DNA of 39,467 nucleotides from Candidatus Woesearchaeota archaeon. Its GTDB lineage: Archaea; Nanobdellota; Nanobdellia; SCGC-AAA011-G17; JAGVZF01. Below the pieces are notes generated by a model. It did no database searches. It saw nothing but the letters and a program-made list of their open reading frames with translations, and had not been told where the DNA came from. Of this stretch, positions 18,724 to 28,455 are shown piece by piece; within the stretch, counting starts at the first letter, position 1; the number at the start of each line of letters is the position of its first letter. Where the stretch lies: NCBI GenBank assembly GCA_016185565.1, contig JACPNH010000019.1:1-39467 (forward strand), in the 5' to 3' direction. The position numbers were made by a program, and so were the translations under genes.

Positions 18724-18827
18724 TGGGCCCGGGCAGATTCGAACTGCCGACCTCCACCTTGTAAGGGTGGCGTCATTTGCGGGTTTCTTATTTTTAATTA
18801 TTAAACTAACCGCTAGACTACGAGCCC
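18724..18827 (-). tRNA. tRNA-Val(TAC) with a 31-nt D-loop intron (18777-18807)
   Basis: Mature sequence GGGCTCG TA GTCT AGCGGTT^ATGAC G CCACC CT TAC AA GGTGG AGGTC GGCAG TTCGAAT CTGCC CGGGCCC A; BHB with central helix GCGG/CCGC and bulges TTA/AAA. Confidence 0.93.
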
Positions 18828-23659: not shown

Positions 23660-24568
23660 ATGGAAAAAATAAGACCTTTTAGATATGGTAAAGATACTTC
23701 AATTAATAATTTGGTAAAGCAGTTTGAGAAATTAGGATTTCAAGCAAATAAATTGGCGAATACTGCAAATATTATTGGGTTAATGATTAAGGATAAAGAT
23801 TGTAAGGTATTTTTAGGGGTTGCCGGGGCATTAGTTCCAAGTGGCATGAAGGAAATTTTAATTGACATGCTTAATAATGACTGGATTGATGTTTTGGTTA
23901 TTACTGGTGCTAATCTAACACATGATCTAGTAGAGGACCTTGGGTATAGCCATTTTTTAGGGCATGAGTCTATGAATGATGAGGAATTAAACAAAAAAGG
24001 GCTAGTAAGGATGTACAACATCTTAATGCCAAACAAAGTATATGAAAAATTGGAAGAGTTTTTTAAAAGTAATTGGAATGAAATAAGCAAGCAAAATAAT
24101 GTTAAGGACTTTTTATGGACTTTAGGGAAGTTAAGCCCTGGAAATGGGATATTAAAAACATGTTTCAATAAAAAAATACCAATATTTAGTCCGGCTATTT
24201 CTGATTCTGGCATAGGCTTGATGATGTGGGGTCAATTAAGCCAGGGTAAAAGGGCAGAAATCAAGGCTTTTGAGGATTTAAAAGAGATTTTAGACATTGC
24301 ATGGACTACCAAAAGAACAGGGGTTATTTATTTGGGAGGAGGAACTTCTAAGAATTATATACAGCAGGCAATGCAATTTTCAAAAGAGGCTTATTATGGA
24401 GTGCAAATCACAATGGACAGGCAAGAATTTGGAGGAAGCTCTGGGGCTGAACTTAAAGAAGGCATATCTTGGGGTAAATTAAGCCCGAAGGCAAGGCATA
24501 TTAATCTGGCTTGCGACATCACAATAGCTCTGCCTTTAATATATTGTGCTTTGAAAGAAAGAATTTAG
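23660..24568 (+). CDS. dys: Deoxyhypusine synthase
   Basis: GFQA, TGANLTHD, PAISDSGIG, GGGTSKNY and GGSSGAELKEGISWGKL (catalytic Lys). Confidence 0.95.
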   Translation: MEKIRPFRYGKDTSINNLVKQFEKLGFQANKLANTANIIGLMIKDKDCKVFLGVAGALVPSGMKEILIDMLNNDWIDVLVITGANLTHDLVEDLGYSHFLGHESMNDEELNKKGLVRMYNILMPNKVYEKLEEFFKSNWNEISKQNNVKDFLWTLGKLSPGNGILKTCFNKKIPIFSPAISDSGIGLMMWGQLSQGKRAEIKAFEDLKEILDIAWTTKRTGVIYLGGGTSKNYIQQAMQFSKEAYYGVQITMDRQEFGGSSGAELKEGISWGKLSPKARHINLACDITIALPLIYCALKERI

Positions 24569-24648
24569 CATTATTTCTTGTCTAGTTCTTACAAATATTT
24601 ATATATTAGTATAACTTAGATTTTATTGGAATTGGAGGTGTGTACTCT

Positions 24649-24747
24649 ATGCCTAGAAGCAATCTTCGCAAAAAACAAAAAAGGGCCAAGAAAAAATCAG
24701 GCAAAAAGAAATCTTATTACGATAAAGAAGAAATGATGGAGTATTAA
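24649..24747 (+). CDS. Unannotated 32-aa basic small protein
   Basis: MPRSNLRKKQKRAKKKSGKKKSYYDKEEMMEY*; GGAGGTG RBS at 24634-24640; TATA-like TTTATATA at 24598-24605. Confidence 0.6.
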   Translation: MPRSNLRKKQKRAKKKSGKKKSYYDKEEMMEY

Positions 24748-25493
24748 TTTCTTAAAAATTTAGGCATTATTTTCTTTTCATTTTCAGGATCAAAATTTTT
24801 TATTTCTATATCATTTAATGGCATTACAATTCTAGAAACTAATGAATTTAAGGAATAAGGCAGTCTTATTAGACGTATATGGCCATGACTAACCCAAGGG
24901 TCTATAGGGAATTTCTTTAGATTTTTATTAAGCGAATTTCTTTGGCGCATAGTTAATTTGAAGGCTTTTTTATCTCTTACATGAACATGACAGCCCCTGC
25001 CCGAATATATGATTTTGATATTTTTAAAGTATTTTTGAAGACTATTTTTCATTTTGATGCCGTAATTAAGGCTCATTTTAATACAATATGGACAGAACTT
25101 ATGAAGGCTTTTTTTATGATTAGGGCAATTTATGTTTTCTGGATCTATGTCAAATACCAGTTCTTGGCCAAGACAATTTTTTGTACTTAAAGCATTCTTA
25201 AAATTCATATTCTTTAAGGCTAGATTAGCATCTTTGTATTTATTTCTGTCATAATAAACGTCTTCTGGGGCTAGTTCAATTAATTTCTTTTTTAGTTCTT
25301 TAAAGCTTATGTTAGGCTTTAGAATTAGAAGTTTTTTCATCTTTTTCTTGTCTTTAATAATGTGAGTTTCAGATCCTAGATCAACAACAAAGAATTGAGG
25401 TTTTTCTTTAAACCAAGATATTATTTTTTTTATCGAGAATTCTTGTTCATAGAACTTTTTTCTTTCTGCTAAATTGCTTGGTCTTAATTCCAT
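24744..25493 (-). CDS. Archaeo-eukaryotic primase catalytic-subunit-like protein (PriS-like)
   Basis: ELVFDID, Zn motif CPNH...CPYC, YSGRGCHVHV and ID..VS...RLIRLPYSLN. Confidence 0.88.
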   Translation of the reverse strand: MELRPSNLAERKKFYEQEFSIKKIISWFKEKPQFFVVDLGSETHIIKDKKKMKKLLILKPNISFKELKKKLIELAPEDVYYDRNKYKDANLALKNMNFKNALSTKNCLGQELVFDIDPENINCPNHKKSLHKFCPYCIKMSLNYGIKMKNSLQKYFKNIKIIYSGRGCHVHVRDKKAFKLTMRQRNSLNKNLKKFPIDPWVSHGHIRLIRLPYSLNSLVSRIVMPLNDIEIKNFDPENEKKIMPKFLRN

Positions 25494-25499
25494 TTAGAA

Positions 25500-25727
25500 T
25501 TACTTGGATTTTTTAGTTATTATTGAATTTAAGTGTTCAACCATTTCTTGCATTTGTTTTTTTGACATACCGTGACCAAGGGCACCCTGTTCAAGTGTTT
25601 CAAAAGTTGATGCTCCGCAACCTATGCAATGCAAGTTATATTTCTCCATTATAACTCCAGCTAATTGTGGATATCGACCAACTATCTCTCCCATTGTCAT
25701 GCCCTTATGTATTTTTACGATTGCCAT
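25500..25727 (-). CDS. DUF1858 domain protein
   Basis: MTMGEIVGRYP...LHCIGC...FETLEQGA..HG. Confidence 0.88.
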   Translation of the reverse strand: MAIVKIHKGMTMGEIVGRYPQLAGVIMEKYNLHCIGCGASTFETLEQGALGHGMSKKQMQEMVEHLNSIITKKSK

Positions 25728-25824
25728 GGTTTTATTACATTTATTATGGTTTATAAATTTTTTTATTACGATAAAATGTATAACAAAAAGCTTTAAAAAG
25801 ACTCTATATCTTTTTGTCCTTTAT

Positions 25825-25967
25825 AGCGGAGTGGGGCAGTTAGGAGTGCCCGTCGAATCTTAAAAAGATGCGGAAGGCTCATAAGGCATTAACTGCTTAG
25901 AGAGACCCGGAGGTCGTTGGAAGTTTTACTTAAGTAAAGCTGACGAATTCAAATCCAACCTCCGCTA
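25825..25967 (+). tRNA. Initiator tRNA-Met(CAT) with three introns (29/30: 25856-25875; 37/38: 25884-25904; 53/54: 25921-25947)
   Basis: 75-nt mature sequence AGCGGAG TG GGGC AGTTAGGAGT GCCC G TCG^GG CT CAT A^A CCCGG AGGTC GTTGG^TTCAAAT CCAAC CTCCGCT A; A1-U72 and GGG/CCC initiator marks; BHB helices CCGT/GCGG and CGTT/GACG. Confidence 0.92.
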
Positions 25968-26104
25968 CTTTATTTTACAATATTTATAGGTCTTTTTTTA
26001 ATAAAACTATTAATTTTACTAAAATTAAACTCTAGTTTAAGATTTTTTATTAACTACCCATTTAGAGTTTTTATAGAATGAACGGACTTAAACTAATCTA
26101 GAAG

Positions 26105-26220
26105 CGCCGGAACTGGGATTTGAACCCAGATCTCCGTTAGGAGCCAGCTACCTAGTATTCTTTCCAGGTTCACCTTTCTTTAAAGAAAACTGGTGCCATA
26201 CCAGGTTAGGCGATTCCGGC
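26105..26220 (-). tRNA. tRNA-Ser(GGA) with two introns (30/31: 26169-26189; 37/38: 26150-26161)
   Basis: GCCGGAA/TTCCGGC+G73, CCAG^C CT GGA A^A GCTGG, long variable arm CTCC-TAAC-GGAG; BHB central helices CACC/GGTG and CTGG/CTAG. Confidence 0.92.
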
Positions 26221-26354
26221 TTGGTATAAAAGGTAAAATTATGATATATAAAGCTGTCGCGCAAGCCGTTAGATGTGAGAAGTAGACGTGAATTTTTGTG
26301 CAAAGTTTGTTTTCAAAAGGTTTATATATTTTTTACTTTATATTAAAACTTCAG

Positions 26355-26588
26355 ATGGAAGATATTTTAGAATGCCCGCAATGTAGATCAAGAGAAATAA
26401 GTTTAATTCCTGATCAAACAGCCAAGTTTATATACAAATGCAACAATTGCAACTATTCTGGGCCCAGGATAATAAAATTGGATAAGCTAGAAGAGCAGAA
26501 GAAAAAATTAATGTCTATGACACTGTCTAAAGGCACAAGAAAAGAGATTGAAGAAGCTCTTAGAAAGAAGAAGGCTGGGATAAAATGA
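26355..26588 (+). CDS. Small Zn-ribbon protein
   Basis: CPQC...CNNC; ATG at 26355 preferred over GTG at 26298. Confidence 0.7.
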   Translation: MEDILECPQCRSREISLIPDQTAKFIYKCNNCNYSGPRIIKLDKLEEQKKKLMSMTLSKGTRKEIEEALRKKKAGIK

Positions 26589-26770
26589 TATACTGCCATA
26601 AATGCGGAAGAAGGACTGGCAAGCATGCTAATGTATGCAGTAACTGCGGGTCTTATTTGAGAAAAAGAGGGCATAGCACAAATTATACTTTAGTTATTAT
26701 AAGAGCAATTTTGCTTGTTGCTTTAGTCTTGTTTTTTATTTATTTATTCAATAAATATTTGGGAACTTAA
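26585..26770 (+). CDS. Zn-ribbon protein with a C-terminal TM helix
   Basis: YCHKCG...VCSNCG plus a hydrophobic tail; ATGA overlap with the previous gene. Confidence 0.75.
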   Translation: MIYCHKCGRRTGKHANVCSNCGSYLRKRGHSTNYTLVIIRAILLVALVLFFIYLFNKYLGT

Positions 26771-26780
26771 TAATTTAGAT

Positions 26781-27092
26781 TCACGATTCTAACATTTCTA
26801 TTTCTATAGAAACACCTTCAGGAATAGGAACCCTCATTACTAAGCGTAAGGCTCTTTCATCTAATCCGAGATCAATCAATCTTTTATGAATACGCATTTC
26901 AAACCTGTCAAAAGAAGCCTTTCCCTCCCCATCAGGACTTTTTCTTGTGGTGATTTTTAATCTTTTAGTAGGCAATGGAATAGGACCATAAATTGTTACA
27001 CCAGTTTTTTCAGCAATCTCTCTAATTGAATTACATATTTGATTTAACTTGTCTACTTCTGTGGAGGCTAAATTGATTCTTGCCTTTTGCAT
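26781..27092 (-). CDS. rpsJ: 30S ribosomal protein uS10
   Basis: [21 protein letters not shown]...[11 protein letters not shown]; true start MQKARI at 27092. Confidence 0.97.
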
Positions 27093-27135
27093 GATTGTAA
27101 AAGAAAAATAGTAATTTATAAAGCTTACTAAAAAG

Positions 27136-27227
27136 CTATGAATTTTCAGCATATTTTTTAATAAAGAGGTGTACTATTTAATTGGAGTTCTTGCATTCGC
27201 AAATTCTTTGAAGAAGCTTATTATCAT
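27136..27227 (-). pseudogene. Internally deleted relic of a paralog of ORF 27721-28455
   Basis: Begins MIISFFKEFAN (versus MIISFFEEFPN); another frame ends FIKKYAENS* (versus LLKQYA*). Confidence 0.6.
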
Positions 27228-27313
27228 TTATAAACTATGCAATTCCCTCATTTATGTAATTTTATAGGCTTAAATTCAAAAGATTTATAATTTTAGATAA
27301 ATCTGGTTATTAT

Positions 27314-27724
27314 ATGGCAAGATTCTTTAGAAGAGTGACCATAGTCAGAGTGGAAAAACCATCAAGATTTACGATTAATGAAGAGATACAGTGGTTTTCA
27401 AATAGTCTAGGCCTATTTGGAGAAAGGGATAAGGAAAAATCAAAATTCAGAATATTCCTAGAACTTTTAAAGGCTGCAAAGCTTAAGAAAGGACTGAGTA
27501 CGGAACAATTGTCAGAAAAAACTAATTTAACTAGGGCTACAATAATACATCATCTCAACTTGTTAATGGAGCAGGGATTAGTTATAGAAAAAGATGGGAA
27601 GTATTATCTAAGACTGCAAACCTTAGAGGAATTAGTTGGAGCCTTGCAACAAGACATAAGAGAAATATTTGGCGAGCTTTATAAAATTGCAGAGTCAATA
27701 GACAAGGAACTCGGATTGAAATGA
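27314..27724 (+). CDS. Winged-helix (ArsR/TrmB-like) transcriptional regulator
   Basis: LSTEQLSEKTNLTRATIIHHLNLLMEQGLV HTH followed by a coiled tail. Confidence 0.85.
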   Translation: MARFFRRVTIVRVEKPSRFTINEEIQWFSNSLGLFGERDKEKSKFRIFLELLKAAKLKKGLSTEQLSEKTNLTRATIIHHLNLLMEQGLVIEKDGKYYLRLQTLEELVGALQQDIREIFGELYKIAESIDKELGLK

Positions 27725-28455
27725 TTATTAGTTTCTTTGAAGAGTTTCCCAATAGTGAAAATTTAGAAAAATTAGAACTTGTTGATTGGGATACTAAACT
27801 ATATTTAGCAAGTAAAAGCCTCAAAGAGTTCCATAGAATAAGAAGAGGGATAAAAAATGAACATGTTAGAGAGCTTATTTATTGGCCCATTTTAAAGCAT
27901 GATTATTATATATCACCATTTTCTAAAAGAAAAAATTTAGAGGCTATTTTTAATGAAATCGGAGATGAAAATGTGAGTGTTCTTTTGGATGCGGAGTGGC
28001 CATTAAAAAAAAGGGTGGCATTAAAAGAAATTTTTAGTTTTTTTGGCAATAGAAGACTAATAAGGAATTTTGTTTTGCAACATAATAATATATACGTGGC
28101 TGAATATTATCATATGGGGGCGTTTATGGACGCTATTTATGGGTTTTTAGGGTTGCATTTTGATCCAAATAAATTTAATAATAGAGCCATCAGAATGGTT
28201 TATCATTCCTTGCATAATTTTGATAAAAACACCATTAATGAGCTGAGAAGATGCGAGGAAAGTTATAAAGATAAATTTTTGGTTGCTTATGGCACTATTG
28301 CTAGAGGAATTTTAAAAAATGAACCCATTCTGCCTCTTTCTAGATTAGAAGAAGATTTAATTATTGCCAAGGAACTAGGAATAAGAGAGGTTGTTATTTA
28401 TAGATTGGGTGGCTTGAATGAGGATTATGCTAGGTTATTAAAACAATATGCATAA
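27721..28455 (+). CDS. Conserved hypothetical protein (possible TIM barrel)
   Basis: Alternating beta/alpha pattern, LLDAEWP and a terminal VVIYRLGG; function not assigned. Confidence 0.65.
   Translation: MIISFFEEFPNSENLEKLELVDWDTKLYLASKSLKEFHRIRRGIKNEHVRELIYWPILKHDYYISPFSKRKNLEAIFNEIGDENVSVLLDAEWPLKKRVALKEIFSFFGNRRLIRNFVLQHNNIYVAEYYHMGAFMDAIYGFLGLHFDPNKFNNRAIRMVYHSLHNFDKNTINELRRCEESYKDKFLVAYGTIARGILKNEPILPLSRLEEDLIIAKELGIREVVIYRLGGLNEDYARLLKQYA

Follow-up and report, generated by a model that had tools for sequence, protein, structure and literature searches.

An initiator tRNA-Met gene with three predicted introns in a Woesearchaeota-like DPANN archaeon

Where does a small archaeal genome keep its initiator tRNA when standard tRNA detectors pass over the locus that appears to encode it, and can a tRNA gene broken three times, once within the anticodon stem, be that gene? 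The locus in question lies at positions 25825-25967 (+ strand, as for all of its parts below) of the window, by which we mean the whole stretch of 39,467 nucleotides that was analysed, and its host is a Woesearchaeota-like DPANN archaeon from groundwater with a genome of 801,777 bases (0.8 Mb) in 53 contigs at about 32% G+C. Four exons (31, 8, 16 and 20 nt) alternate with three introns (20, 21 and 27 nt) that break the tRNA at positions 29/30, 37/38 and 53/54; the initial annotation had proposed these sites and lengths, and they match the indexed sequence to the base.

Exon 1 (25825-25855, 31 nt) provides the 5′ strand of the acceptor stem from A1, the D arm and anticodon-stem positions 27-29; two extra bases in the D loop place its end at position 29, and this segment is 94% identical in relatives by BLAST. 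Intron 1 (25856-25875, 20 nt), at 29/30 and flanked by a bulge-helix-bulge, falls between G29 and G30 and does cut the GGG element, as had been claimed. Exon 2 (25876-25883, GGCTCATA) is indeed the 8-nt exon bearing the anticodon that had been described earlier, comprising G30, G31 and loop positions 32-37 with the CAT anticodon among them. Intron 2 (25884-25904, 21 nt) occupies the canonical 37/38 site with a relaxed motif and is followed by exon 3 (25905-25920, 16 nt), which contributes A38, C39-C41, the remaining anticodon stem, the variable region and the 5′ strand of the T stem. Intron 3 (25921-25947, 27 nt; HBh′-type), at 53/54, is the previously noted T-arm intron, and exon 4 (25948-25967, 20 nt) completes the gene with the T loop, the 3′ strands of the T stem and of the acceptor stem to U72, and discriminator A73; CCA is not encoded. 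Exons 3 and 4 are both 100% identical to a same-genus ortholog described below.

Upstream, an A-rich stretch followed by a TATA-like CTTTAAAAAG box (25785..25800) forms a putative promoter element, with the box 26-33 nt 5′ of tRNA position 1. Of 16 orthologous initiator genes, 14 have an (A)AAGCTTTAAAAAG-type motif at equal distance, and boxes like CTTTAAAAAG are also found 5′ of many other tRNA genes in the host genome. Immediately 3′ of the discriminator, a T-rich tract (25968..25978) is likely an archaeal transcription stop; such tracts also lie 3′ of most orthologs. The neighbouring genes have housekeeping roles (deoxyhypusine synthase, a primase small-subunit-like protein, a DUF1858 protein and ribosomal protein S10). 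Public runs carrying window positions 24000-28000 number four, all of DNA and none of RNA. The interrupted form is present, without gap or joint, in the contigs of all four DNA runs, with a single T>C difference at 25861 (in the hairpin of intron 1) in one of them, and no intronless DNA form occurs among these contigs. As the four runs come from one groundwater study that is possibly the source of the assembly, and contigs drop rare variants, they show that the locus is not a stitching error and nothing more.

Joined in silico by their coordinates, the four exons give a 75-nt product that ARAGORN calls as tRNA-Met(CAT) over 1-75, with a perfect cloverleaf consisting of a 7-bp acceptor stem whose first pair is A-U, a 4-bp D stem, a 5-bp anticodon stem and a 5-bp T stem. 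An A1-U72 pair is the rule for archaeal initiators. The anticodon stem has three consecutive G-C pairs, G29-31:C39-41, directly above the loop, so that both initiator features attributed to the spliced product by the initial annotation are seen in the ARAGORN cloverleaf. Such a run of three G-C pairs is almost universal in initiators, according to the available text of PMC7531240. The claim of initiator identity is also upheld by comparison within the genome: the sole other CAU tRNA found there (C30:566-639, − strand) has neither feature and, because it carries G1-C72 and the GGG/CCC block is absent, reads as elongator-type or Ile2-type. Judged from its sequence, the locus is confirmed as a real initiator tRNA-Met gene with three introns, which we predict to be spliced.

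The case for splicing starts from the motifs at the exon-intron junctions. In the bulge-helix-bulge, a 4-bp central helix pairs exon positions p-5..p-2 with intron positions n-5..n-2 and is flanked by 3-nt bulges that hold the cut sites, an inner helix lying within the intron and an outer helix between the exons. The canonical 37/38 case fits this geometry, which we used for scoring, as do the descriptions in the accessible parts of PMC4090602. Intron 1 has the full motif, with a central helix of CCGU/GCGG, two 3-nt bulges, an inner hairpin of 5 bp and an outer helix of 2 bp. The motif of intron 2 is relaxed: its central helix has three of four pairs, with A35 opposite A in an A·A mismatch, its inner hairpin is small, and its outer helix is the anticodon stem, which offers 2 bp with intron 1 present and 5 bp once that intron is removed. 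Intron 3 combines a CGUU/GACG central helix with an inner hairpin of 8 bp and an outer helix of 0 bp, the HBh′ form. The two central helices quoted in the initial annotation, those of introns 1 and 3, are thus present with 4/4 pairs each, one of which is a G-U pair in either case. The core of the bulge-helix-bulge is found in all three introns, and its strict form in intron 1 only.

The motifs are much better than chance would supply. With place and length fixed beforehand, and 400,000 random places per intron sampled in the host genome's own DNA, an equal or better motif arises with a frequency of 4.25e-5 for intron 1, 4.2e-3 for intron 2 and 2e-5 for intron 3. A slide of one base that leaves the product unchanged is possible for intron 2 only. 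In a folding model, adopting the motif costs about 2, 5 and 4 kcal/mol for introns 1, 2 and 3, respectively, and none of the motifs is the preferred fold. Separately, the heptamer GCAGTTA in the D arm and D loop (25836-25842) is perfectly complementary to TAACTGC in intron 2 (25890-25896), giving a long-range pairing of 7 bp in competition with the D stem and with the intron 2 hairpin. One ortholog (L002) has a 5-bp equivalent, and the pairing may be due to chance.

None of the standard searches recovers the gene. ARAGORN misses the locus in the window both with and without its intron search; Rfam at the gathering threshold gives no match at the locus over the window, nor does a whole-genome Rfam tRNA search; and Rfam at E<=10 over the 801 bases around the locus returns nothing, so the unspliced locus does not reach the 29-bit gathering score of RF00005. 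We attribute this failure to the three insertions, because orthologs with no intron and with one intron score 61.8 and 40.2 bits, respectively, against the same threshold. The host's initiator is therefore invisible to Rfam/Infernal and ARAGORN, which explains the annotation gap. As an uninterrupted initiator anticodon stem-loop is found in only 12 of 41 related genomes, calls of a missing initiator in DPANN bins are likely to be failures of detection rather than biology or incompleteness.

Other tRNA genes of the host are also unusual. Rfam detects only 26 and ARAGORN 27 in the 84%-complete genome, and about half of these exceed 90 nt. Two CAU tRNAs were found in all, and further hidden interrupted tRNA genes are likely. 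Within the window, a tRNA gene at 18724-18827 (− strand) is found by Rfam (56.9 bits) but escapes ARAGORN; once a 31-nt insertion (central helix 4/4, inner helix 4, outer helix 2) is taken out of its D-arm region, a 73-nt tRNA-Val(TAC) results, and this insertion is another non-canonical intron in the window. A further interrupted tRNA gene at 26105-26220 (− strand; Rfam 42.1 bits) lies 138 nt from the initiator in tail-to-tail orientation; two insertions break it, one of 37 nt in the anticodon region and one of 11 nt close to the variable region. Which tRNA it encodes is ambiguous (ARAGORN reports Leu(TAG) with a 31-nt intron), and its same-genus counterpart has no Rfam match at the gathering threshold.

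The strongest evidence on the boundaries comes from a genome of the same genus (G001), in which a syntenic, intronless 75-nt ortholog (L008, the gene scoring 61.8 bits above) departs from the joined exons at 2 D-arm bases out of 75. Collinearity holds over the 1.5 kb upstream (71.5% nucleotide identity), and a counterpart of the downstream tRNA is present too. Because the exons are 97% conserved against 71.5% for the upstream flank, they are under much stronger constraint; and because L008 carries the uninterrupted gene, the intron boundaries are fixed independently of the splicing motif.

We extended the comparison to 41 related genomes, searched with BLAST of the 143 nt, an intact anticodon stem-loop pattern and a 5′-exon pattern. 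This recovered 30 initiator genes from 29 genomes, all 30 of which splice in silico to a 75-nt tRNA-Met(CAT), the counts resting on a custom spliced aligner against the product of the window; no initiator gene was identified in the other 12 genomes (G003, G009, G012, G019, G020, G022, G023, G027, G028, G035, G038 and G039). Three short chance BLAST matches (L017, L019 and L020) were left out, and one further candidate (L014, G006:C2) was rejected as an initiator after aligning poorly, with a score of 36; its genome is represented by L115. Six of the 30 genes have no intron, eight have one, three have two, ten (the window's included) have three, one has four and two have five. The rarity implied by the initial annotation is not borne out within the host's order, where three introns are the commonest state of the initiator gene (10/30): the layout is unusual in general and common among relatives.

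Intron sites recur across these genes at 28/29 or 29/30, 37/38, 53/54 and 59/60, with a further group around 42/43-44/45; sites 7/8, 10/11, 15/16 and 20a/21 are single cases. For the 42/43 to 44/45 introns (seven genes), motif scores are uneven, down to 2/4, and boundaries are approximate. Introns at 29/30 or 28/29 are present in 12 of the 29 other genes and absent from the same-genus ortholog, and canonical 37/38 introns in 17 of the 29, several of them with a perfect central helix. Site 53/54 is occupied in 10 other genes (11 with the window), with a central helix of 4/4 in every one (CGTT/GACG, CGGT/GCCG, CGCT/GGCG, CGAT/GTCG or CGTC/GACG). The pair between exon position 50 and the intron takes the forms U:A, G:C, C:G and A:U across genomes, that is, all four Watson-Crick forms, and the 28/29 intron corresponds to the 29/30 intron moved by one base, its helix shifting along (CCCG/CGGG versus TCCG/CGGA). 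Intron interiors are nearly wholly different between genomes, and the parts that build the motif are either kept or change together with the exon; this pattern fits selection for recognition by the endonuclease and argues against decay.

Several of the recovered genes deserve individual mention. Two initiators have five introns, L004 (G010:C83, at about 132-303 of the analysed stretch) at 7/8, 28/29, 37/38, 53/54 and 59/60, and L141 (G021:C4, near 57074) at 29/30, 37/38, 43/44, 53/54 and 59/60; L139 (G026) has four. All three splice in silico to a 75-nt tRNA-Met(CAT), and Rfam finds nothing in L004. The single canonical intron of L009 (G015:C6) spans 98 nt, and the TGATGA and CTGA motifs within it bring to mind a box C/D guide RNA; in some Euryarchaeota, the intron of tRNA-Trp houses a box C/D guide RNA. 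In four orthologs (L009, L013, L120 and L141) the anticodon loop reads GGGCCCATAACCC, with C in place of the near-universal U at position 33. Intron number also differs within genera, with none in G001 versus three in the host and one in G005 versus three in G002, the last two sharing a 53/54 intron that differs by one base. These differences point to recent precise loss or gain, and the two pairs of genomes are material for its study.

How far initiation in this organism would depend on splicing turns on whether the interrupted gene is the only one. That it is the sole tRNA-iMet gene, as the initial annotation presupposed, is probable and agrees with the 84%-complete assembly, in which no second was found. 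A real and spliced gene might nevertheless be accompanied by an uninterrupted or differently disrupted copy in the unassembled part, which we consider improbable; initiation would then proceed independently of the three splicing events, a consequence to which we give the same low credence. The assembly is 84% complete in 53 contigs, which leaves room for such a copy, and one related assembly (G004, with 6% contamination) does show two different initiator genes. Searches of the 84%-complete host assembly recovered no second initiator, whether by BLAST at E<=10 with the locus as query (each exon matching nowhere else), by a scan for intact CAT stem-loops, by an A1-acceptor scan, by the stem-loop pattern (GGGCYCATAACCC, absent) or by the 5′-exon pattern, which matched once. 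That last pattern matched at most once per genome in all 41, and just once in every relative with a multi-intron gene; in seven relatives that are 95-100% complete (G002, G014, G018, G021, G024, G033 and G037) the initiator is a single gene with 2-5 introns; and in the same-genus genome the syntenic gene is the only one found. The two genes of G004 both have three introns, one (C65, L002) at 29/30, 37/38 and 59/60 and the other (C197, L112) at about 7/8, 20a/21 and 53/54, and given the 6% contamination they may derive from two organisms.

Two other readings are less likely still. One holds that the locus, once an initiator gene, took up three insertions and is now a decaying pseudogene that is no longer processed, as the failure of standard detectors and the imperfect motif of intron 2 could suggest; we regard this as very improbable in view of exons that are 73/75 identical to the intronless ortholog beside a flank at 71.5%, insertions that each sit exactly at a place able to form a bulge-helix-bulge, exon-intron covariation across genomes that points to selection on the motif, a conserved promoter box, and the absence of any replacement gene from the assembly. 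The other holds that the product is an elongator tRNA-Met or a CAU tRNA-Ile2. Three CAU tRNAs are usual in archaea and two were found here, so the assignment was made with one member missing; against this, the product has both A1-U72 and the three G-C pairs 29-31:39-41, the other CAU tRNA lacks the GGG/CCC block and begins with G1-C72, and four orthologs have C at loop position 33, a deviation that to our knowledge occurs in initiators only, and we hold this reading to be just as implausible. A split or permuted tRNA gene was rejected, the four exons being collinear in 143 nt behind one promoter-like box.

If a functional initiator gene is the right reading, the host should possess the enzymes that its processing calls for. 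We found one EndA gene (C44), encoding 184 aa with the Pfam C- and N-terminal domains and a TIGR00324 match, whose closest public relatives are in metagenome bins named Woesearchaeota or Nanoarchaeota. Its best PDB matches are the catalytic alpha subunit of N. equitans (5.5e-41) and M. jannaschii EndA (7.4e-35; 1A79), to which it aligns without gaps over residues 19-184. The tyrosine, histidine and lysine that we take to be the catalytic triad are conserved in this alignment, and the six extra residues that precede the catalytic His in the N. equitans alpha subunit are absent from the host protein. No EndA paralog was detected by phmmer against 2,636 six-frame ORFs of the host genome. Weak Pfam matches at C10 and C38, considered as a second subunit, were rejected as unrelated ORFs, which look like an adenylate-forming ligase and a triose-phosphate isomerase. 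Exactly one EndA-domain match is found in 38 of the 41 relatives; another genome shows a full match together with a fragment at a contig end, and the remaining two show none. By gene content, the host EndA is of the plain alpha4 kind and is presumably a homotetramer. The RtcB ligase is also encoded, with a match of 473 bits on C11. This match (G000:C11:19256-20431, − strand) lies inside an 898-aa open frame, about twice the usual length, for which an intein or a fusion is possible, and a 23-residue match to the RtcB N-terminus is on a separate contig, C47.

From the observed anatomy, cloverleaf, orthology, covariation and enzyme genes, we infer that the locus is very probably a functional and likely single-copy initiator gene with its own promoter, whose three introns would be cut by the sole EndA and joined by RtcB. 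Transcription from its own TATA-type promoter would produce a precursor of about 143 nt with three bulge-helix-bulge introns; EndA would cut within the 3-nt bulges at each exon-intron junction; and RtcB would join the exons, with CCA addition afterwards, to give the 75-nt initiator with A1-U72 and G29-31:C39-41. The order of cleavage would be constrained by overlap between motifs. In the outer helix of intron 1, G31 and C32 pair with C23 and G22, and both bases also take part in the outer and central helices of intron 2; because both motifs use G31 and C32, the full motifs of the two introns are mutually exclusive, and introns 1 and 2 are therefore probably removed one after the other. Sequential removal would keep the 8-nt anticodon exon attached at one side at all times. 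Intron 3 is structurally independent of the other two. In constrained folding, removal of one intron does not clearly favour the motif of another, and because the folding costs give no clear shift between introns, the proposed order is without energetic support. A like situation is described, in the available sections of PMC8450103, for archaeal genes elsewhere whose two or three introns lie close together.

Much of this has precedents elsewhere in the archaea. Three introns per tRNA gene, and the sites concerned, are established for Crenarchaeota in the portions available of PMC4090602, PMC8450103 and PMC3218864, with 29/30, 53/54 and 59/60 among the known intron sites listed in the first of these. 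The multi-intron tRNA genes of Thermoproteales (Pyrobaculum, Thermofilum) are alike in having up to three bulge-helix-bulge introns at canonical and non-canonical sites. Thermoproteales, however, are TACK archaea with a heterotetrameric (alpha-beta)2 EndA that has a specific loop, as stated in the accessible text of PMC5829648, whereas the present host, a DPANN archaeon with a 0.8-Mb genome, encodes one loop-less EndA of the alpha type, and it is the initiator gene that is interrupted.

Single-copy initiators that exist only in an EndA-dependent form also have parallels: within the available text of PMC3218864, the iMet halves of N. equitans are joined at 37/38, the iMet of T. pendens is permuted at 59/60 and has a canonical intron in addition, and processing of both is argued to be essential. 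The gene described here is like those of Nanoarchaeum equitans and Thermofilum pendens in that an essential initiator, in this case probably single-copy, would be available in such a form alone; unlike the split gene of the former and the permuted gene of the latter, it has three cis introns and collinear exons in one transcription unit.

Heavily interrupted tRNA genes in Asgard archaea are alike in having many introns per gene. As far as the sections available of bioRxiv 10.64898/2026.10.13.758758 go, Asgard tRNA genes have up to five introns, which are enriched at motif-forming boundaries and of which standard annotation misses many; the terms DPANN and initiator each have 0 occurrences in that text. 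Asgard archaea belong to a different superphylum and their EndAs carry an L1 loop, according to available parts of PMC5829648, whereas the host EndA has no insertion relative to the M. jannaschii enzyme. That study (Kaneta et al. 2018), in the same parts, predicted tRNAs in one Woesearchaeota genome, associated DPANN EndAs of the alpha4 type with increased disruption of tRNA genes, took incomplete tRNA sets to point to unidentified disrupted genes, and linked disruption to an L3 loop in the EndA C-terminal region. The host EndA, lacking any such insertion, is unlike the L3-bearing DPANN enzymes covered there, and those main-text parts do not describe a three-intron initiator gene. Our search of the main text of largely open-access papers found no report of an interrupted Woesearchaeota initiator. 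What is new is the three-intron initiator of a Woesearchaeota-like archaeon; such introns, their sites and EndA-dependent initiators were already known.

The enzyme and its putative substrate sit uneasily together. By the rule given in the available text of PMC5829648, only (alpha-beta)2, epsilon2 or extra-loop enzymes cut relaxed motifs. The A·A mismatch of intron 2, the lack of an outer helix in intron 3 and an EndA that aligns gaplessly to the strict M. jannaschii enzyme are at odds with this rule. Among relatives, an outer helix is never found in introns of the 53/54 class, and a mismatch interrupts the central helix of some 37/38 introns. The host's order thus seems to manage relaxed 53/54 introns and some relaxed 37/38 introns with a loop-less, single-subunit enzyme. 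We put forward tentatively, with somewhat less than even confidence, the broader proposition that Woesearchaeales process heavily interrupted initiators, modally with three and with up to five introns, by means of one plain alpha-type EndA. If this is true, a loop-less alpha4 endonuclease has a broad substrate range, the accepted link between endonuclease architecture and intron diversity is broken, and the initiator gene is a recurrent intron hotspot in a lineage of minimal genomes.

The locus itself is a natural substrate that combines one strict and two relaxed motifs in a single 143-nt RNA, and it could show whether strict motifs are the only ones that a minimal alpha4-type EndA accepts. 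For the organism, every start of translation in a 0.8-Mb genome would depend on six endonuclease cuts and three ligations, and through this dependence of the initiator on splicing, EndA and RtcB would be strictly essential to the host.
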